Origin: Candidatus Spongiisociaceae bacterium
Lineage (GTDB): Bacteria > Actinomycetota > Acidimicrobiia > Spongiisociales > Spongiisociaceae
Reading direction: 5' to 3'
Length of the DNA: 64,000 bases
Assembly (NCBI GenBank): GCA_965202665.1
Contig: OZ241841.1
Coordinates: 288,001 to 352,000 of the forward strand
A model generated the notes under the pieces. That model did no database searches. It saw only the letters and a list, made by a program, of their open reading frames with translations, and was not told the origin of the DNA. Shown here piece by piece: positions 52,235 through 63,187 of the stretch (position 1 is its first letter; every line of letters starts with the position of its first letter). Made by a program: the position numbers and the translations under genes.

Positions 52235-52267
52235 CCGGGAGAGCCGCCCGCCCCGCCGGGCGCGCCC

Positions 52268-52480
52268 TTAGTGAATAAGCAACCGGCCCGTCGGGTTGAC
52301 CAGGGCGGGGGCGATGGCGGACATGTCCTCCATCTCCGGGTGGTCGCCCCACGCGGAGTCGGCGTGGTGGTCGGCGTGCCAGTGGTCATGGACGTCGTGG
52401 TGGGGTATCCCCAACGGACGTTGCAAAGACCGGGACAGGGTGAGTCCGATCCGCCTTCTGAGGTCTCGTTCGATCAGCAT
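52268..52480 (-). CDS. 70-aa His-rich small protein, hypothetical
   Basis: AAAGGAG RBS; HHDVHDHWHADHHAD. Confidence 0.55.
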   Translation of the reverse strand: MLIERDLRRRIGLTLSRSLQRPLGIPHHDVHDHWHADHHADSAWGDHPEMEDMSAIAPALVNPTGRLLIH

Positions 52481-52746
52481 CGCGCTTCGTCTCCTTTCGC
52501 CCAAACGAAGAAACCGGACGATACCCTACCCGAATGCCGGGGACGGGGGGCGGATTTCCCCCGCCTAGCCGACGCGGCCCCGCGGGACGGCCCCCCGCCG
52601 CCCGCCCAAACCGGGCCGGCACCCGCCTGACCAGGCAAAACAAGGGGGTGTTTTTTGTCACGGAAGTAGGCTATATTGAAAATAGCGGGACAAACGAAGC
52701 GGACGGAGGCAACCAAGCCGCCCCTGGGGCGGAAAGGAGTCACAAG

Positions 52747-53007
52747 ATGGCCAAAAACAAGGCCGCGCGCCTGGCCAGAAAGGCCGCGCGCAAAAGGAAA
52801 AGGGAGTTCGCCCGGGCGAATAAGTTGTTCCTCCGTTCACTCAACTCGGGGGTTCCCATTTCTATTTTGATGCCCGACACCCCCGTACACCCCAATCCCC
52901 CCTGTGCGTTGCTGAACCCCCCGTACAAGACCAAACCTCCCAGCCGGTCAAAATCCAAGGAGGAGACCCGATATTGCCGCACACGACGCTGGGTTTGCAA
53001 ACCGTAA
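52747..53007 (+). CDS. Small basic hypothetical protein (86 aa)
   Basis: GAAAGGAG RBS; MAKNKAARLARKAARKRKR. Confidence 0.55.
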   Translation: MAKNKAARLARKAARKRKREFARANKLFLRSLNSGVPISILMPDTPVHPNPPCALLNPPYKTKPPSRSKSKEETRYCRTRRWVCKP

Positions 53008-53045
53008 TAAGCAGGCAAGTAAATCCCGTTTCAGAAAGGAAGGCG

Positions 53046-53306
53046 ATGTTCAACCGTAAGCCCAAAATGGGCTCACGCTCACAGCGGAGTTCCAGACGCG
53101 AACGTCTGCGCTCCAAGCGGGAATATCGGCGACGCCAGCACTTTGAGCCGAAAGGCGCGCAAGTGGTGCCAATAGTGCCGGTCACCGTTAAAACGGACGC
53201 TCCGTCCGCTATTCCATTGCCTCCCCTGCAAGAGGATACAGATCAGGCAACAGCAAATACTACCTCCCTAGAGACCAAGTTGTTATACCCAAAAAGAGAA
53301 TGGTAA
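53046..53306 (+). CDS. Small basic hypothetical protein (86 aa)
   Basis: GAAAGGA RBS; Arg-rich N-terminus. Confidence 0.55.
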   Translation: MFNRKPKMGSRSQRSSRRERLRSKREYRRRQHFEPKGAQVVPIVPVTVKTDAPSAIPLPPLQEDTDQATANTTSLETKLLYPKREW

Positions 53307-53399
53307 GTGATGGTGTTATATGAGGAGCACGGCCGTGGGACATCATCTCAGCCGCGAGGCGAAGCGGCGAACATGATGGGCGGAGGAAGGTGAGTCGTC

Positions 53400-54470: not shown

Positions 54471-54552
54471 CCCGCCCCAACGCCCGGCGCGTCCGCCCGC
54501 CGTCAGCCCCCGCCAAATTGTTAGTAATCCGCCAAACCTGTAAAATGGCCCC

Positions 54553-55290
54553 GTGAGGCAAATACTTTCCGATCTGGTGGCGGAACAACAACATCTGGAC
54601 CAGTTCCTGCAGCAAATCAACATTCGCAACTGGTCGCTGGAAACTCCGGCGGAGGGCTGGGACATCCGGGACACGGTTTCCCATTTGGCCCACATTGAAG
54701 AGTACGCCGGCGACGCCCTGAACGGGAGCGGCTCCCGCCTGGACGAGTTGGACGACTACCGGGATTTGAACGAGTTGACCGAAGCGGGGGTGCGCCGGGG
54801 CCGGAACATGCGCCCGCAGGATGTGATCGAATGGTGGCGGCTGGAGCGGGCCAAAGTGGTGGAGGCCCTGAGCCGAACCAAAGCCCGGGAACGGGTGCCC
54901 TGGTTTTTCGGGGACATGTCGGCCCGCAGTTTCGCCACTATGCGCCTGGCCGAAACCTGGGCCCACGGCCTGGACGTGTACGCGGCGGTGGGCGAGGAAG
55001 CGGAAGATTCGGAACGGTTGCAACATGTGCTGTTGCTGGCGCAGATGAGCCTGCCGTGGGCTTTCCGGATGGCGGGCTTCGACTACGACCAAGCGGTTCG
55101 GTTGGAGGGAATAGGGCCCATGTACGCCAAATACGTGGCTGGCCCGGAAGACACCGACCAGCTGATCCGGGGGCCGGTGGGGGAAATCTGCCGTATCGCC
55201 CTGCAACGGCTGGACCCTGATGACGCCGAAAACCTGATAGTCAAGGGGGACACGGCCGCCGCCGCCGTGCAAGTAATGCGCACCTATTAA
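54553..55290 (+). CDS. Mycothiol-dependent maleylpyruvate isomerase (MDMPI) family protein
   Basis: TPAEGWDIRD.VSHLA, RLAETWAHGLD. Confidence 0.85.
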   Translation: MRQILSDLVAEQQHLDQFLQQINIRNWSLETPAEGWDIRDTVSHLAHIEEYAGDALNGSGSRLDELDDYRDLNELTEAGVRRGRNMRPQDVIEWWRLERAKVVEALSRTKARERVPWFFGDMSARSFATMRLAETWAHGLDVYAAVGEEAEDSERLQHVLLLAQMSLPWAFRMAGFDYDQAVRLEGIGPMYAKYVAGPEDTDQLIRGPVGEICRIALQRLDPDDAENLIVKGDTAAAAVQVMRTY

Positions 55291-55331
55291 ACGGGCCGCC
55301 CCGCACCCGTTTAGACGGGCCGCCCCGCACC
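55289..55331. repeat. 17-bp direct repeat (period 24) overlapping a weak hairpin
   Basis: acgggccgccccgcacc at 55291 and 55315; aaacggg/cccgttt arms. Confidence 0.7.
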
Positions 55332-55355
55332 GGTCGGCACGCCCGGAGGACGACG

Positions 55356-56132
55356 ATGGGTGATTTGTTTATGGTCGGGATGGTCCATCTGGGCCCGCTC
55401 CCCGGCTCCCCCCGCTATACCGGCGACTTCCCGCAGGTGCTGGAACAGGCGGTCGCCGATGCGGCCATCCTGCAGGAAACCGGGTGGAATGCGGCGTTGG
55501 TGGAAAACTTCGGAGACGCCCCTTTCTACGCCGATGACGTCCCGGACATTACGGTGGCGGCGATGACCCGGGCGGTGGCGGAGGTGCGGCAGGCGGTAAC
55601 CATCCCGGTGGGGGTGAACATGTTGCGCAACGATGCGCAGGCGGCCCTGGCGGTGACGGCGGCCTGCGGAGGAAGTTTCATCCGGGTGAATGTGCTGTCG
55701 GGGACGATGTTCACCGACCAGGGAATAATCGAAGGCAAAGCGGCCGAGTTGTCCCGCCTGCGCCGCACCCTGGGAGCGGAAGTGGAATTCTGGGCGGACG
55801 TGTTCGTAAAACACGCCGTCCCGCCCCCCGGCACAGAAATAGGAGCCGCCGCCAAAGACCTGTGGGAGCGAGCCGGGGCCGACGCCCTGATAGTGTCCGG
55901 CCCCGCCACCGGCCATCCGCTAAACGACCAGGACCTACGCCAGGTGCGGCAGGCCCTCCCCCAAGCCCGCCTAATAGCCGGTTCCGGAGTAACCCCCGCC
56001 AACATAACCGCCCTAACCCCCCACATAGACGGAGCCATAGTAGGAACCGCCCTAAAACAAGAAAACCAACCCCAAAACCCAATAGACCCCACCCAAGCCC
56101 AAACTATAATAAAAGCCGCCCACCCCCGCTAA
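55356..56132 (+). CDS. BtpA/SgcQ family protein
   Basis: GMVHL.PLPGSP, VENFGDAPF, GVNMLRND, FIRVNV, ADVFVKH, IVSG.ATG. Confidence 0.92.
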   Translation: MGDLFMVGMVHLGPLPGSPRYTGDFPQVLEQAVADAAILQETGWNAALVENFGDAPFYADDVPDITVAAMTRAVAEVRQAVTIPVGVNMLRNDAQAALAVTAACGGSFIRVNVLSGTMFTDQGIIEGKAAELSRLRRTLGAEVEFWADVFVKHAVPPPGTEIGAAAKDLWERAGADALIVSGPATGHPLNDQDLRQVRQALPQARLIAGSGVTPANITALTPHIDGAIVGTALKQENQPQNPIDPTQAQTIIKAAHPR

Positions 56133-56135
56133 CCT

Positions 56136-58265
56136 CTACAACGGGCCATCTCCCCTCGGTTGCCAAGCCCATCTAGAAACATGATCAGCCAGCTTACGAA
56201 CACCAGAACCGTCCAACTCCACCACCCACAACCCCCCGTCACTCGCAGTAAAGGAGATCCGTCCATCATCCGGCGACTCTTCCCACCGTGTAACATCGTC
56301 TGCTAATAGACGATTGCCCGAACCATCCAAACCCATCACCCACAACTCCCTAGTCGCGTTGTTAGAAGAATCTCGCACAGCCACCTCATATATTATTTGG
56401 TCTCCAGTCCCCTTTCCGTAACTATAAATAGTGACATCGCTAGTCAACTGACGATTGCCCGAACCGTTCAACCCCGCCACCCATAACTCCGAGCCTACCA
56501 CAGTCCGACTAGAATTCCTCACTTTTATCTCATAGATAATGCTCTCCCTACTCAATATCCAATTCCAACCTCCCACAATATCATCGGCCAGTTGACGAGC
56601 GTTCGAACCATCCGCCTCCGCCACCCACAACCCCGTACCCAACCATTTACCAAACTCCCACACTTTCGACTCAAAAGCTATCCGATCTCCACTGGACGAC
56701 CACGCCCACCTATAAGCAAAATCTTTAGTTAACTGATGCTCCATCAAACCATCCAATTTCATCACCCACAACTCATCTGCCATTTTATTACCAGAATTAT
56801 CTCGCATCCTCACCATATAAACAATCCGCTCCCCATCAGGTGACCACTCCCAATCACCAACGTCATCGGTTAAACGATTAATACCCGAACCATCCACCGC
56901 TACCACCCATAACTCCTCATAGGTATGCCGACCATAAGTCTTATAGGCGATCCGTTCCCCATCTGGTGACCACTCCAAATCCTGATTCCAACGAAACTCG
57001 TTACTCAACCGACGAGCACCCGAACCATCCACCGTCGCCACCCACAACTCATACTCCTCAGATCCCAAATTCCCTTGCTTATTTACTAGATACGCAATCC
57101 TTTCCCCATCCGGCGACCACCACCAACGATAAAAATCATCTGTCAACTGACGAGGGCTTGAACCATCTGCACCCGCTACCCACAAATTCTGGCCAGCCTC
57201 ATTACCGCGAAAATCGCGTAACGCAATATTATAGGCGATTCTATTCCCATCTGGCGACCACTCCCAGCTCCAACCAACATCGTAGCGGCGGAGCGGTCTT
57301 TCAATATAACGGAGGGCATCCGGCGACCACTCCCCAGTCCAACCAACATCAGTCCAACCAACATCGTTCGTTAACCGACGAGCACCCGAGCCATCCGCAC
57401 CCGCTACCCACAACTCATAAGCCACCTCTTCGCCAAGTGAATCGTACACCGAAACCCGATACCCAATTCGCTCCCCACCCGGCGACCACCCATAAACACC
57501 AAAATCATAGGGTAGATCATCGGTCAACCGACGAGTGCCCGAACCATCAGACTCCTCCACCCACAATTCCCCACCCACTCGATACGCAATCCGTTCCCCA
57601 TCGGGCGACCAATAATCATCATCAGAGACCCAACCGGGTAACCGACGCGCACTCGAACCATCGGCCTCAACTACCCACTCCTCAGAGGATACTTGATCGC
57701 CAGCTGAATCGTATTTTGGGACTGTGTAGGCGATTTTGCGGGCGGGCGGGGTCAGGTCGTTTAGGGCTTGGGTGCCTTGGCGCATGAATGTTGCTAGGTC
57801 TGCCCGGGTGGAACCGGCGGGGAACGCCCGACTGGCTACCGTTGCGATCTGGTTGGGGGTTATGGTTCGGTCGGGGCGGAAGGCGCCGTCTGGGTAGCCT
57901 TGGAACCAGCCCTGTTCCACCGCGTAGGCTATATCCCCGCTTTGGGGGTGCGACTCTGCCACATCGTCGAAATCGGCGGAACCGTCGGGGTCGCCCGGGT
58001 TGCCTCCCCTTAGGAAAGTGGCTAGATCGGCCCGGGTGGAACCTGTGGGGAACGCCCGGTTGATTACCGTCGCTATCTGATTTTGGGGAACCTCCCGATT
58101 GGGGCTGAAAGTCCCCCCGGGGTAGCCCTGAAACCAGCCTTGTTCACAGGCGTAGACGATGTCAGCCTGTTGCGGACCGGACTGCGGCACATCGGAAAAC
58201 CGGCAACCAGTCCCATCCTGGGCACCAAGCGGGGAGACGGCCGCCGTCAAACACGCCGCCGCCAA
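56136..58265 (-). CDS. SLH-domain protein with TolB/PD40-like beta-propeller repeats, paralog 1
   Basis: GWFQGYP.G.F.P..TR motifs; many WSPDGERIAY / LWV...DGS..RRLT repeats. Confidence 0.85.
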   Translation of the reverse strand: MAAACLTAAVSPLGAQDGTGCRFSDVPQSGPQQADIVYACEQGWFQGYPGGTFSPNREVPQNQIATVINRAFPTGSTRADLATFLRGGNPGDPDGSADFDDVAESHPQSGDIAYAVEQGWFQGYPDGAFRPDRTITPNQIATVASRAFPAGSTRADLATFMRQGTQALNDLTPPARKIAYTVPKYDSAGDQVSSEEWVVEADGSSARRLPGWVSDDDYWSPDGERIAYRVGGELWVEESDGSGTRRLTDDLPYDFGVYGWSPGGERIGYRVSVYDSLGEEVAYELWVAGADGSGARRLTNDVGWTDVGWTGEWSPDALRYIERPLRRYDVGWSWEWSPDGNRIAYNIALRDFRGNEAGQNLWVAGADGSSPRQLTDDFYRWWWSPDGERIAYLVNKQGNLGSEEYELWVATVDGSGARRLSNEFRWNQDLEWSPDGERIAYKTYGRHTYEELWVVAVDGSGINRLTDDVGDWEWSPDGERIVYMVRMRDNSGNKMADELWVMKLDGLMEHQLTKDFAYRWAWSSSGDRIAFESKVWEFGKWLGTGLWVAEADGSNARQLADDIVGGWNWILSRESIIYEIKVRNSSRTVVGSELWVAGLNGSGNRQLTSDVTIYSYGKGTGDQIIYEVAVRDSSNNATRELWVMGLDGSGNRLLADDVTRWEESPDDGRISFTASDGGLWVVELDGSGVRKLADHVSRWAWQPRGDGPL
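57248..57350. repeat. 34-bp direct repeat (30/34 identical) around a 35-bp unique insert
   Basis: 57248-57281 versus 57317-57350, period 69. Confidence 0.8.
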
Positions 58266-58319
58266 CCACAGCCACCACCATCGAAACCGGCCCTGATTAA
58301 CGATGATATGCGTCTTCCA

Positions 58320-58456
58320 CTACGAACTGGACGGTTCGGAGAAGCCCACGCCTAGCAGGTACCGTTGGGCGTCGGGATCGTTGATTATCTCGTTGGTGGA
58401 CATTCGGCGACTATGTTACAGGAAACCACCACCAGATGCCGTTCCGCCACCGCCGA
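58320..58456 (-). pseudogene. Degenerate copy of the livF-like 3' end
   Basis: ccacgcctagcagg...caccagatgccgttccgccaccgccga matches about 62476-62587. Confidence 0.88.
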
Positions 58457-58571
58457 CCTGCGGGAGCGCGCCGGAGCCGACGCCCTGACAGTGTCCAGCC
58501 CCGCAACCGGCCATCCGCTAAACAACCAATATCTACGCCAGGCGCGACAAGTTCTCCCCCAAGTCTAATAG
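58455..58571 (+). pseudogene. Degenerate copy of a btpA 3' segment
   Basis: Matches about 55857-55977 (DLRERAGADALTVSSPATGHPLN). Confidence 0.9.
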
Positions 58572-58636
58572 AGGCCACCCGACCCCGCTAACCACCACCT
58601 GAACCCCACCCCGCCTATTTCAGCAATGAAACGGGC

Positions 58637-60796
58637 CTAACGCTCCATTGGTTGCCATAACCAAATATCAACATCTTCAACCAATTTACGAACACCCGAA
58701 CCATCAGCCCCTGCCACCCACAACTCTGAGCCTGCTTTACTACCAGAAGAATCTACTACATAGGCAATCCACTCCCCATCAGATGACCACCTCCAATCAT
58801 TAATGGCAACCGCATCAGCTATCTTATGGGGGGAGGTATCCCCTCCCGTTACCCATAACTCCACGCCCACCTTATTTCCAGAAGAATCTCGTTTATTTAC
58901 CCCATAAACTATTTTCTCGCTATTAGGCAACCATCCCCAAATATTATTAGCAATATCATCTATTAACCGATTAGGGTTCAATCCACCCGACTCCACTATC
59001 CACAACTCAGAGCCCACCACACTCCGTCGAGGATCCCTTTTTTTGACCTCATAGGCAATCCTCTCCCCACTCGGCGACCATCCCCAACTTTGAATATCAT
59101 TTGCTATCTGCCTAGTATTCGAACCATCAGCATCCGCCAACCACAACCCCGTACCCAACCATTTACCAAACTCATATACTCTCGACTCATAAGCGATACG
59201 ATCCCCACCGGACGACTTCCCCCAGTTATAAGCAAAATCATCAGTTAATCGACGAGTGCTAGACCCATCCACACCGGCAACCCACAGCTCTTTAGCCTCC
59301 ACGCTTCCAGGAGAATAAGGACACTCGTCTAAAGTTACCTCTAAAACAATACTCTGCCCATCGGACCACCACAAATCGCTAAACGGCGATCCCCCACACC
59401 TATTATCACTTGGGATTAACCGACGAGCACCCGAACCATCTAGTCCCACCACCCACAACTCCCAACCAAAGTCCATTGAAATACTTTCATAAGCAATCCA
59501 CCTACCCCCCGGTGACCACCAAAAATCTTCCCTGATGTTGTTTATCAGCTGACGAGCACCCGAACCATCCGCCTCCTCTACCCATAACTCCTCATCCACC
59601 CGATACGCAATCCGCTCCCCATCTGGTGACCACCCCATGAGAGACCCCCACCACCATCTAGAAGCAAGGTCCGTCATCTGACGAGAATTTGAACTATCCG
59701 CACCTGCTACCCACAACTTCTCCCCAATCTCATTACCGCGAAAATCGCGTAATACAACATTATAGGCGATGCGATTTCCATCCGGTGACCACCGCCAAGC
59801 AGAACCAACATCGTCCGTCAGTCTACGAGCACCCGAACCATCCGCTTCCTCCACCCATAACTCATAAGCCACCTCGTCGCCAAGTTTATCGTATACCGGA
59901 ACCCTAAACGCAATCCGCTCCCCATCCGGCGACCACTCCCAACCAGGGCGCCACCCCCAACCACGAACATCGTCGGTTAAACGCTTGGCATCTGAACCAT
60001 CCGCCTCCTCCACCCATAACTCTTCATCCACCCGATACGCAATCCGCTCCCCATCCGGTGACCACTGCCACCACCGCCACCAATAATAATCATGAGAGAC
60101 ATAACCGGTTAACCGACGGGTGCCCGAACCATCGGCTTCAGCTACCCATACCTCAGAGGCTACCTGATCGCCGGATGAATCGTATTGTGGGACTGTGTAG
60201 GCTATTTTGCGGGGGGAGGATGGGGTCAGGTCGTTTAGGGCTTGGGAGCCCCTTCGCATGAATGTCGCTAAGTCGGCACGGGTGGAACCGGCGGGGAACG
60301 CCCGACTGGCCACCACCGCTATCTGGGTTGGGGTTATGGTTCGGTCGGGTCGGAAGGTGCCGTCCGGGTAGCCCTGGAACCAGCCCTGCTCCACCGCGTA
60401 GGCTATATCCCCGTTTTGGGGGTGCGACTCTGCTACATCGTCGAAATCGGCGGAACCGTCGGGGTCGCCCGGGTTGCCTCCCCTCAGGAACGTGGCTAGA
60501 TCGGCCCTGGTGGAACCGGTGGGGAACGCCCGGCTGACAACCACCGCTATCTGATTTTGGGGAACCTCCCGATCGGGGCTGAAAGTGCCACCCGGGTAAC
60601 CCTGAAACCACCCTTGTTGGCAGGCGTAGACGATGTCAGCCTGTTGCGGACCGGACTGCGGCACATCGGAAAACCGACACCCCGTCCCGTCCTGGGCGCC
60701 GAGCGGGGAAACGGCCGCCGTCAAACACGCCGCCGCCAACCACAGCAACCACCATAGGAGCCGACTCTGCTTGCCGATGATGCGCATCATTCCCAT
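58637..60796 (-). CDS. SLH-domain protein with TolB/PD40-like beta-propeller repeats, paralog 2
   Basis: Signal peptide, SLH region nearly identical to paralog 1, WSPDG repeats. Confidence 0.88.
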   Translation of the reverse strand: MGMMRIIGKQSRLLWWLLWLAAACLTAAVSPLGAQDGTGCRFSDVPQSGPQQADIVYACQQGWFQGYPGGTFSPDREVPQNQIAVVVSRAFPTGSTRADLATFLRGGNPGDPDGSADFDDVAESHPQNGDIAYAVEQGWFQGYPDGTFRPDRTITPTQIAVVASRAFPAGSTRADLATFMRRGSQALNDLTPSSPRKIAYTVPQYDSSGDQVASEVWVAEADGSGTRRLTGYVSHDYYWWRWWQWSPDGERIAYRVDEELWVEEADGSDAKRLTDDVRGWGWRPGWEWSPDGERIAFRVPVYDKLGDEVAYELWVEEADGSGARRLTDDVGSAWRWSPDGNRIAYNVVLRDFRGNEIGEKLWVAGADSSNSRQMTDLASRWWWGSLMGWSPDGERIAYRVDEELWVEEADGSGARQLINNIREDFWWSPGGRWIAYESISMDFGWELWVVGLDGSGARRLIPSDNRCGGSPFSDLWWSDGQSIVLEVTLDECPYSPGSVEAKELWVAGVDGSSTRRLTDDFAYNWGKSSGGDRIAYESRVYEFGKWLGTGLWLADADGSNTRQIANDIQSWGWSPSGERIAYEVKKRDPRRSVVGSELWIVESGGLNPNRLIDDIANNIWGWLPNSEKIVYGVNKRDSSGNKVGVELWVTGGDTSPHKIADAVAINDWRWSSDGEWIAYVVDSSGSKAGSELWVAGADGSGVRKLVEDVDIWLWQPMER

Positions 60797-60821
60797 TTTC
60801 TATGAAGCGGACGATTCGGAA

Positions 60822-62306
60822 TCACTTTTGGATCACTCCGTCCACGACCGGAGTGGAGTTGCCGATCCAGGACAGGCTGCGGGGCTCGCAGGTGGGAATC
60901 TCACGGCTGGGCATGGTTCCCTGCGCGAAAGATCCTCCGAAGGTCTGATCCACCCCCGGAATGACCGCCACCGTCGTCAACCCCAAAGCCCCGTCCGGGC
61001 CGGCCACCAACTGCCGAACGTAGGAGTCGACGATGGCCTGACGGTTGGAATCCAAGGAGATAGGCCCGTAGGGGCCGTCCACTGTCAAACCGGACAAAGC
61101 CGCCTGCAGAGCCTGATGGTCATCGGAGATATCCCCGCCCACCTCCTCCAAAGCCTGAATAAGGGCTTTGGCGGCCACGAAGTAGTGAACCAAGAACCCA
61201 GAGTGGGCTTGCGCCCCCGGAGGAACCGGATCGCCGCCCGGACCCTGGAAATCATCGTAATGCCGGTCGATAATAGCCGTATGCTCGCCCACCGACGGAA
61301 TGTCCAAATCGGCGGCGGTGCCGAAACCGCCCACATGAGCCCCTTCCATACTGGAATCCATTCCCCCAGGCGTAAACTCCCAGAACAGGTTGCCCATATG
61401 CTGCTCCGGATTAAGGTCGCCTTTGGCGTCTTCGAAGGCTTTCAAGGCGGGCAGGGTGCCGGCTCCGCCCACCACCCAAAAGTAGCCGTCCACCTCGTCG
61501 GGATCGGGCAACCGGGCGGCGAAAGTGGAATAATCGGTGGTGTTCAAAGGCGGGAAAACCCGCGAAGTCACATCACCGCCCGCCGCGCAGAATCCAGCAA
61601 TGAAACCGGCGGCCGACGTCCAGCCGAAGCTGTAGTCGTCCATCATCACCGCCGCCGTGTCCCAGCCGAGGACGTTTTTGGCGTAATCGCCGGTGCCGGC
61701 GTTCCACTGCGCCCCATCCCCGTTAAAACTAAAAAAGTTGGGAGCCTGCACCTCCAAAGTGGTCTCCATGGCGCCAGCAGTGCCGTTCACGAAAGTCTGC
61801 GTGGGATGATCTTTGGCGTAGTTGGCCACCGCAATCGACTCGTCTTCGGATGACGGGCCGATCATAATGTCGGCGCCCAGCTGCTCCATCAGGCGGCGGG
61901 TTTCCTCAATGGCTTTGTCGGCCGTGTCATCGGCGCATCCGATTCCGACCAACTCCACCGGCACTCCCGCCACCGACGCCCCGGTGAACCCGTCCGTAGG
62001 CTTGTTCGGGTTAGTGATAGTCGCCCCCGCAAACTCGGCGAAAGCAGCCCCCACCCCGGCTACGTCCTGCTCATGGAACCCGCCGAAAACCCCTTCGCAG
62101 TCCGACAAGACGGCCAGGTTGATCACCTCGGTTCCCATCACGGAAGCTTCGGTGGTGGTCGTCGCCTCGGTGTCCCGCGGGGCCGCGGCGGTGGTGATGG
62201 TGGTGGTCTCCGCCGCGCCGTCCCGGCCGCAGGCGACGGCCGCTAAAGCCAACGCGGCCAGCAAGCCCAGGGCCTTCCCGGTCCGCGTCCTCAACAAGTT
62301 ATGCAC
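60822..62306 (-). CDS. ABC substrate-binding lipoprotein, branched-chain amino acid type
   Basis: Lipobox LAAVAC, T-rich linker, DDYSFGW, TTDYS; GGAGG RBS before GTG at 62306. Confidence 0.88.
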   Translation of the reverse strand: MHNLLRTRTGKALGLLAALALAAVACGRDGAAETTTITTAAAPRDTEATTTTEASVMGTEVINLAVLSDCEGVFGGFHEQDVAGVGAAFAEFAGATITNPNKPTDGFTGASVAGVPVELVGIGCADDTADKAIEETRRLMEQLGADIMIGPSSEDESIAVANYAKDHPTQTFVNGTAGAMETTLEVQAPNFFSFNGDGAQWNAGTGDYAKNVLGWDTAAVMMDDYSFGWTSAAGFIAGFCAAGGDVTSRVFPPLNTTDYSTFAARLPDPDEVDGYFWVVGGAGTLPALKAFEDAKGDLNPEQHMGNLFWEFTPGGMDSSMEGAHVGGFGTAADLDIPSVGEHTAIIDRHYDDFQGPGGDPVPPGAQAHSGFLVHYFVAAKALIQALEEVGGDISDDHQALQAALSGLTVDGPYGPISLDSNRQAIVDSYVRQLVAGPDGALGLTTVAVIPGVDQTFGGSFAQGTMPSREIPTCEPRSLSWIGNSTPVVDGVIQK

Positions 62307-62377
62307 TTTCCCTCCAAACACAGCCACCACCATACAAACCGGCTCTGCTTGCCGATGACGCGCGTCATTCCCGTTTT

Positions 62378-63187
62378 CTACGAAGCGGGAGTTTCGGAGG
62401 AGTCCACCTCTGGCCCTGGCGGTCCCTCCGCCGCCTCCTCGGCCGTTTCCAACGCTCTGGTCGGTTCGGAGGAGTCCACGCCTAGCAGGCGCCTTTGGGC
62501 GTCGGGGTCGTTTATCAGCTCGTGGGGGGACATTTCGGCGGCTATGTTGCCGGAAACCATCACCAGATGCCGTTCCGCCACCGCCGAGGCCACCGCCAGG
62601 TTCTGCTCCACCAGCAGCACCGCTTGGCCTTCCGACACCAAAGTGCGGCAGGTTTCAATCAGGTCTTCCACGATGGTGGGGGCCAAGCCTTCCGACGGTT
62701 CGTCCATTATCAGCAACGGGGCGTTCAACAGCAAAGCCCGGCCGATGGCCAGCATCTGCTGCTCCCCCCCGGACAACCGGGCCCCGCCCACCTCTTTGCG
62801 CTCCACCAACCGGGGAAACAATTCATACACCGCCTGCGGCGTCCAACGTTTGCCCCGCGTGTTGCGGGCCAGCATGGTCAGATGCTCGTCCACGCTCAAC
62901 GACGGGAACAGTCGCCGCCCCTGCGGGACGTATCCGATCCCCCGGGCGGCTATCTTGTAGGATTTTTGGCCGGTCAACTCCTCCCCCATAAACTTGATGC
63001 TCCCGGAACGGGCGGGCAACATTCCCATGATCGTTCCGCACAAAGTGGTTTTGCCCATCCCGTTGCGCCCGACGAGGGCCACCGCCTCCACCCCCATCTC
63101 AAACGACACCCCGTGCAGCACCTCGGCCGCCCCGTATCCGGACACCAGGTTGTCCACCGCCAGCAACGGCGCCCCGCCTTCAGACAT
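62378..63187 (-). CDS. ABC ATPase, LivF-like
   Basis: GRNGMGKTT, YVPQGRRLF, LSGGEQQMLAI, MDEPSEGLAP. Confidence 0.92.
   Translation of the reverse strand: MSEGGAPLLAVDNLVSGYGAAEVLHGVSFEMGVEAVALVGRNGMGKTTLCGTIMGMLPARSGSIKFMGEELTGQKSYKIAARGIGYVPQGRRLFPSLSVDEHLTMLARNTRGKRWTPQAVYELFPRLVERKEVGGARLSGGEQQMLAIGRALLLNAPLLIMDEPSEGLAPTIVEDLIETCRTLVSEGQAVLLVEQNLAVASAVAERHLVMVSGNIAAEMSPHELINDPDAQRRLLGVDSSEPTRALETAEEAAEGPPGPEVDSSETPAS

Follow-up and report, generated by a model that had tools for sequence, protein, structure and literature searches.

A btpA-family gene tail free of G-ending codons ends at a homology edge and shares a strand-polar base shift with other homology edges of a Spongiisociaceae genome

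GC-biased gene conversion is a fixation bias that arises from unequal mismatch handling in recombination heteroduplex. It favours G/C over A/T on both strands alike, and it can override codon selection and fix amino-acid changes. Replication-associated GC/keto skew has the same direction on the leading strand as the pattern described here. In tufA/tufB concerted evolution, duplicates stay near-identical through conversion, for which a double-strand-break/heteroduplex model has been given; the parts of the two reports drawn on here mention no strand or base bias (PMC5485169, PMC6053082). NucS/EndoMS carries out a noncanonical mismatch repair that limits homeologous recombination, and the cited parts of this literature deal with mutation avoidance and recombination rate, not with a long-term compositional footprint at homology edges (PMC8228993, PMC11551744, PMC11109965).

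Here we analyse a window of 64,000 nucleotides (contig OZ241841.1 of assembly GCA_965202665.1, positions 288,001 to 352,000) from the genome of a Candidatus Spongiisociaceae bacterium, G000 below. In the reading proposed below, the pattern would resemble GC-biased gene conversion as a heteroduplex-born fixation bias able to override codon selection. It differs in that G/T is favoured over A/C on one strand, the sign flips between homology edges and GC3 in tuf is lowered. Unlike tufA/tufB concerted evolution, the signal extends to single-copy genes. Unlike replication skew, for which G000 has a weak baseline of about -0.09 to +0.10, it is about ten times stronger and sharply bounded by homology, and even inside a single replichore the two ends of a block differ in sign. 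Searches of a mostly open-access literature listed no description of strand-polar G/T-biased conversion, and the footprint is apparently an undescribed, testable variant of biased gene conversion. To this footprint the window adds the mirror, G-purged side, the reach into single-copy genes and the tie to homology edges.

The gene at the centre of the window's signal is an ordinary btpA, and its tail is a real feature:

55356..56132, + strand: intact btpA/sgcQ-family gene, 258 aa (Pfam PF03437, 267.6 bits; TIGR00259 above cut-off)
55704..55952, + strand: partly recoded zone of btpA, codons about 117-199 (from sliding residuals)
55953..56129, + strand: fully recoded btpA tail, 59 codons with 0 G-ending and 2 T-ending

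The PF03437 score compares with a cut-off of 30, and TIGR00259 gives 258.7 bits against 153.4, which places the protein in the BtpA/SgcQ family. The profile of the photosystem I biogenesis BtpA equivalog (NF045918) gives 258.9 bits, under the required 400. The tail keeps the core residues G-S-G, D-G, I-V-G-T and P-D-A. We expressed the G/T excess at synonymous sites as K = (G3+T3-C3-A3)/n, with ATG and TGG excluded. Per fifth of btpA, K is +0.06, +0.24, -0.22, -0.49 and -0.92, a gradient rather than a step, with recoding setting in near codon 117 (codon 117-132); in the partly recoded zone, G/T-ending codons lie 0.14-0.19 under expectation. Codons 61-80 are G/T-rich in G000 (+0.31) and in its sister species G001 (+0.33) alike.

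An earlier note, made from the sequence alone, had described G-ending codons as usual in the 5′ half, and 61 of codons 1-130 indeed end in G. Its count of no G-ending and two T-ending codons in the last 53 sense codons was also borne out (codons 206-258, 55971-56129: G3 0, C3 27, A3 24, T3 2), and the G-free run is longer, 59 codons. The dominant codons that it listed were roughly right: ATA (7), CCC (5) and CAA (5) are among the commonest, with GCC (8) and ACC (5), but CTA, GGA, GTA and AAA occur just 2-3 times each. Conditioned on the amino acids and on genome codon use on the same strand, 16.6 G-ending codons are expected in 53 and 19.6 in 59, and log10 P of finding none is -10.2 and -12.2, respectively. 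Only two of the 1867 called genes have a longer G3-free run. Among the 1755 genes scored over their last 53 codons, the tail has the third lowest K and is the sole case of G3 = 0 within the 45 most C/A-rich tails. An assembly artefact was rejected, as single contigs from other studies cross the tail (a contig of run X6 covers 54500-56654 with 45 differences, and one of run X13 covers 55311-56133 with 21).

For comparison, 30 btpA loci were fetched from 41 genomes, and the tail is alignable with all of them. The 28 loci outside the genus, with up to 1.5 kb of flank on each side, contain no SLH/PD40 match within that range, and the last 53 codons of these orthologs hold 13-24 G-ending codons; one of the 28 genomes (G039) is unpublished, and the conclusion holds without it. 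Thus an A/C-ending tail in orthologs away from SLH genes, which the earlier note had named as evidence against recoding, is absent from all 28. In G001, which has the same SLH neighbour, recoding is weaker (G3 = 6/53).

The note had also named closeness to a foreign donor as contrary evidence. The nearest match of the tail among 29 orthologs is instead the sister species' btpA, at 67%, with the next at 53%. If the tail had been taken over from a foreign btpA whose codons end in A/C, this would explain why the tail's identity to G001 falls under the 79% of the remaining protein. With a donor search covering 40 genomes, this reading is largely refuted and hardly credible: besides the tail being nearest to the sister species, the gradient is smooth over about 140 codons, recoded codons at 224-235 are common to G000 and G001, and a further strain-level step at 56103 goes toward C/A like the rest of the tail.

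Substitution types along the tail were tabulated, as the note had proposed. Relative to the outgroup majority, the first- and second-position changes are G>A 11, G>C 5, T>C 4, C>A 2, A>C 2 and C>T 1, so that 20 of 25 run from G/T to C/A and one runs the opposite way; the outgroups are distant, and these counts may therefore include multiple hits. The products of G>A changes that the note had stressed do form the largest class, but G>C and T>C stand beside them, and 'G>A' is therefore too narrow. Cytidine-deaminase hypermutation would limit changes to G>A/C>T, and hypermutation by G>A only was rejected on the same G>C and T>C changes. The changes toward A and C and the degenerate copy nearby (below) also appear to misfit the adenine-specific pattern of a diversity-generating retroelement. 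The comparison supports the view that the tail is native and was recoded in place beside the SLH genes, as the note had held, with the + strand going from G/T to C/A by G>A, G>C and T>C.

Downstream of the tail lie the following features:

56130..56136, no strand: homology edge, made up of the btpA stop, a 3-nt gap and the stop of a convergent SLH gene (from strain contigs)
56136..58265, - strand: surface protein 1, with SLH and PD40/TolB-like beta-propeller repeats, start uncertain (profile and repeat evidence)
57740..58039, no strand: SLH-domain block, 90% identical to 60214-60513 (self-comparison)
58444..58592, + strand: degenerate copy of the btpA 3′ end, 84% to 55846-55965
58637..60796, - strand: surface protein 2, SLH and PD40, tandem paralog (profile and self-comparison)

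Contigs from runs X4 and X13 match btpA to 56133 and then carry a different SLH-type 3′ end, which by eye reads like an SLH C-terminus. Contigs from X6 and X17 stay with the window beyond 56133, and X4 carries both forms; the contig joint in the strain comparison is 56133-59433. Strains part right after 56133, and the btpA stop is therefore the border between conserved and strain-variable DNA. The stop codon is thus a homology edge, with strains diverging behind it and the 3′ third of the gene duplicated locally along with the SLH gene. G001 has the same layout of btpA, SLH genes and btpA 3′ fragment. Its fragment starts at about codon 147 and retains the whole 3′ copy; that of G000 starts at about codon 164, is without about codons 207-250 and has, after the matched part, a remnant resembling the last codons and stop (right end set by eye). 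Each fragment matches its own species' gene, at 11 sites versus 1 opposite (11:1:0) in the 119 nt that align reliably, the G000 fragment aligning spuriously past 55965. This implies either conversion or separate duplications.

These fragments raise the possibility of a purely local process, in which conversion between btpA and the tandem 3′ fragment, with replication skew amplified by the repeat genes, acted with no inter-strain exchange. The fragment starts lie near the onset of recoding, and the + strand is the C-rich strand at the locus in both species, as such a process would have it. We nevertheless regard it as quite improbable: recoding is strongest where the G000 fragment is deleted, G001 keeps the whole copy yet is less recoded, and single-copy genes with no duplicate detected reach similar values elsewhere (below).

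Genome-wide, homology blocks tend toward G/T at the 5′ edge of either strand and toward C/A at its 3′ edge. IS elements and paralogs show this polarity, as do the tuf and recA pairs and single-copy genes at synteny breaks. It is therefore not special to SLH neighbours. The left edge is richer in G/T than the right on the top strand in 56 of 79 G000 repeat blocks and not richer in the other 23. Edge polarity of intragenomic repeats is stronger on the leading strand: with the origin placed at the cumulative skew minimum near 1.33 Mb, the origin-facing edge is the stronger one (right edges score -0.39 in the left replichore, and left edges score +0.39 in the right one). Transposase genes have a K gradient like that of btpA. 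The two recA copies (G000:C1:132501-133571 and 1276072-1277136, 95.7% identical, with one match in G001) have gradients in the same direction as btpA's: four fifths of their length are G/T-shifted, and the sign reverses in the final fifth. At the btpA locus, the SLH-domain block at 57740..58039 has a G/T-rich left edge. The propeller regions, including that of surface protein 1, are C/A-rich on the + strand throughout, which fits the leading-strand rule and misfits a simple edge rule.

For single-copy genes, the comparison of G000 with G001 took in 800 kb of the latter's 3.18 Mb. The outermost 150 nt of 97 collinear single-copy blocks are shifted by +0.16 on the left and -0.16 on the right in both replichores; the 259 internal gene junctions of such blocks lie between -0.08 and +0.01. 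Taken individually, 55 of 82 collinear blocks have the expected sign and 27 are without a G/T-richer left edge. Convergent tails next to a break (n=41) average -0.30 and those whose neighbour is conserved (n=24) average -0.06 (p=0.004), and 8/41 versus 1/24 fall below -0.6. Tandem tails have -0.17 versus -0.05 (p=0.03) and divergent heads +0.09 versus -0.04 (p=0.01); tandem gene heads at breaks have no significant effect (p=0.64). Single-copy tails at breaks reach K -0.88 to -0.92 on either strand. Among them, G000:C1:1074802-1075605, presumably a SurE-like gene, and 976186-976755 lie at synteny-block edges with a tail K of about -0.9, and no duplicate of either was detected. As a side observation, the sign is weakly reversed 300-900 nt inside the edges of collinear blocks.

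Convergent orientation as the cause of the tail shift was rejected, as convergent tails with a conserved neighbour are almost unshifted. The same observation bears on selection for a C-rich, G-poor transcript end, through Rho loading or blocked read-through into the convergent gene. Rho prefers C over G, rho is present in G000, and convergent tails are C-shifted genome-wide (four-fold G of 0.30 and C of 0.53 over the last 25 codons of lagging-strand genes), all in keeping with such selection. We hold it to be very unlikely, since besides the unshifted convergent tails G232 and G031 carry rho with no tail shift (-0.02 and +0.02), and the A-enrichment, the amino-acid changes and the mirror G/T signal in tuf and left edges would go unexplained. 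All five genomes sampled for tails (G232, G031, G058, G001 and G000) have rho. Tails shifted beyond -0.5 number 0/223 in G232 and 1/208 in G031, which are without NucS (400-kb samples). With NucS, the counts are 2/225 in G058 (400 kb), 35/438 in G001 (800 kb) and 46/494 in G000 (first 0.8 Mb).

The tuf genes serve as a natural experiment. We searched tuf, NucS and MutS in 41 relatives, 91 genomes of the class and 126 of the phylum, MutS only in the phylum sample and five further genomes; NucS was found in 81/91 class and 40/126 phylum genomes. G000 has NucS and no match to MutS or MutL. Its two tuf copies (G000:C1:1041185-1042375 and 2035689-2036879) are identical, and both run for 313 codons without C3, the signal ending at the homology border. 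Third positions are G3 279, T3 89, C3 15 and A3 1, and four-fold sites G 187, T 16, C 8 and A 0. The shift reaches the protein: EF-Tu has 58 Val and 51 Gly versus about 41 and 38 in unrecoded relatives, with 28 changes at conserved columns (including I>V 5, K>R 3 and E>G 3), and 7 of 10 AGG/AGA codons stand at Arg columns.

All 18 genomes with NucS and a near-identical tuf pair, from 10 families, 2 of them outside the class, have positive K (+0.23 to +0.93), and in 17 of the 18 it is higher in the 5′ half. None of five with NucS and a diverged pair is recoded (-0.22 to -0.07), nor is any of nine from 8 families with a near-identical pair and neither NucS nor MutS (-0.26 to +0.07, the upper value being from G031, an 85% complete genome). 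Pairs in six MutS genomes of one family have K -0.30 to +0.28, two of them at +0.21 and +0.28. Single-copy tuf in assemblies of at most 10 contigs gives -0.26 to +0.02 (nine genomes), and E. coli tufA -0.01. G086, G093, G106 and G065 have recoded tuf, with one copy found in assemblies of 50-190 contigs.

The groups omit genomes without a second copy fetched or compared (among them G033, G036, G038, G029, G058, G081, G118 and G182, all with K of at least 0.57, and G188 with -0.25), fragmented assemblies in which one copy was found, G066 with its three mixed copies and a lone G025 C1 copy (68% identity, K -0.49). Also omitted are G028 and G039 (K -0.15 and -0.20), in which no NucS was found and the pairs are probably collapsed. 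A family-level search around G028 for further NucS-negative genomes yielded only two genomes. The genomes compared are related, and therefore no p-value is given. Within these groups the tuf signature correlates with the joint presence of NucS and a near-identical pair; where one of the two is missing, so is the signature. Codon selection on tuf only was rejected, because IS elements, paralogs, recA and single-copy edges show the footprint, and single or diverged tuf copies do not. As biased gene conversion would have it, the signal is tied to a near-identical partner, in near-identical versus diverged tuf pairs and in its stops at homology borders. A strand-symmetric G+C gain, the mark of GC-biased gene conversion, is not what tuf shows: one of its strands loses C and gains T.

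The mispair preference of NucS matches the G/T-versus-A/C split in this genome. In the parts of the reports cited here, G-T, G-G and T-T are the mispairs that NucS prefers, A-C being hardly acted on (PMC8228993), and in oligo recombination in M. smegmatis C-C, A-A, G-A, C-A, A-C and A-G mismatches pass, with G-T and G-G rejected (PMC11551744). The NucS link to the footprint is a correlation across related genomes. Genomes lacking NucS are without signal (0/9 near-identical tuf pairs, and 400 kb each of G232 and of the incomplete G031), and NucS looks necessary for the footprint. It looks not sufficient, because G058, which has NucS, has so few shifted tails next to G000; lifestyle or repeat load therefore confounds this control.

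We consider it fairly probable that the btpA tail results from NucS-filtered, strand-polar biased gene conversion, in recurrent recombination ending at the stop codon. Repeated homologous recombination up to that edge would likely drive the + strand from G/T to C/A, the heteroduplex mispairs being filtered by the NucS endonuclease. The favoured strand would probably be the RecA-coated one whose homology begins at the edge, at btpA the - strand; this winning strand is chosen to fit the sign of the bias. Where it meets G or T with its own G or T, the mispair would be visible to NucS and the strand would keep its base; where A or C lies opposite A or C, the mispair would go unseen and the partner allele could pass on. 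Over many exchanges the favoured strand would fill with G/T, and the btpA coding strand would lose G- and T-ending codons and take on V>I, A>T, R>Q, V>A and E>Q changes. Such a bias in fixation would bring no benefit, and purifying selection would set its limits. The partners were likely btpA alleles from other strains, met when the SLH end was exchanged, and in earlier times the local copy; G000 has a ComEC-family gene. Codons 207-250, the most recoded, are absent from the G000 fragment, so that the partner there presumably came from other strains or was an older copy. An escape of C-C and A-C mispairs from NucS fits the G>C and T>C changes. Within-class changes, which NucS should ignore, fit badly, both in the tails of G001 versus G000 (11 C>A against 6 A>C) and at the AGG/AGA codons for Arg. 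Also counting against this reading are the two MutS genomes with positive K, the unaffected tandem heads, the collinear blocks and repeats whose left edge is not richer in G/T, the weak sign reversal inside blocks, the propeller regions and the four genomes with recoded tuf in which one copy was found.

The same edge geometry could also act by mutation, if exposed single strand were deaminated (C to U, A to hypoxanthine) or copied in an error-prone way and NucS were a correlate or the maker of breaks. The polarity matches exposure of 3′ overhangs, G>A is the largest class in the tail, four-fold T is raised in G/T-rich windows (0.21 vs 0.09), and on the leading strand, in the part of the report cited, nucS-null replication errors run A>G and C>T (PMC11109965). 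We think this mutational origin unlikely. The nine near-identical tuf pairs without NucS are unshifted, C in G000 tuf four-fold sites is mostly replaced by G and not T, the two copies are identical, and the btpA tail has G>C transversions. G000 has two genes of the uracil-DNA glycosylase family, which likewise speak against it; loss of uracil repair was rejected on the same finding. The base make-up leans somewhat toward a fixation bias rather than a mutation bias.

We are evenly divided on a broader statement, that in bacteria with only NucS every recurrent recombination edge is pushed toward G/T on one strand and C/A on the other, rewriting codons and residues even of EF-Tu, and that hot edges can be read from a single genome. 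If biased conversion filtered by NucS is real, a mismatch-repair enzyme of many Actinomycetota would exert a directional, non-adaptive force on the most-recombining sequences, visible even in EF-Tu. Codon-usage, horizontal-transfer and selection tests would then misread such tracts as foreign or adaptive, and in uncultured bacteria a single assembly would suffice to map, by this footprint, where recombination edges recur and which loci vary. It also makes testable which strand NucS keeps when acting on recombination heteroduplex.

Several further observations concern the same genomes. Three surface-protein paralogs of about 4490 aa are encoded at G000:C1:766738-780222, 2217478-2230974 and 2454493-2467905; in the one plotted, G/T and C/A zones alternate internally in a sawtooth, which perhaps marks older conversion-block borders. 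A 454-nt repeat near the inferred origin (G000:C1:1314799-1315252) is extreme in its C/A content (keto -0.75). At 52240-53340, upstream of an SLOG gene whose start is G/T-rich, a lower-GC stretch is not alignable with G001, which has another low-GC gene in its place. G001 also has a 442-aa ORF between its second and third SLH genes (L031:13852-15180), which we take to end in an HNH-like motif. The 5′ regions of both SLH genes (58259-58370 and 60733-60820) resemble the start and upstream region of the neighbouring ABC substrate-binding gene (62311-62500), which suggests that a start or signal segment may have been borrowed from it. The substrate-binding protein genes at 60822-62333 and G000:C1:351959-353461 are 93% identical and 3 kb apart and, unlike other repeats, show little G/T shift. 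The best-matching sequencing runs with habitat labels, four of which were compared with the window, are sponge and marine metagenomes.
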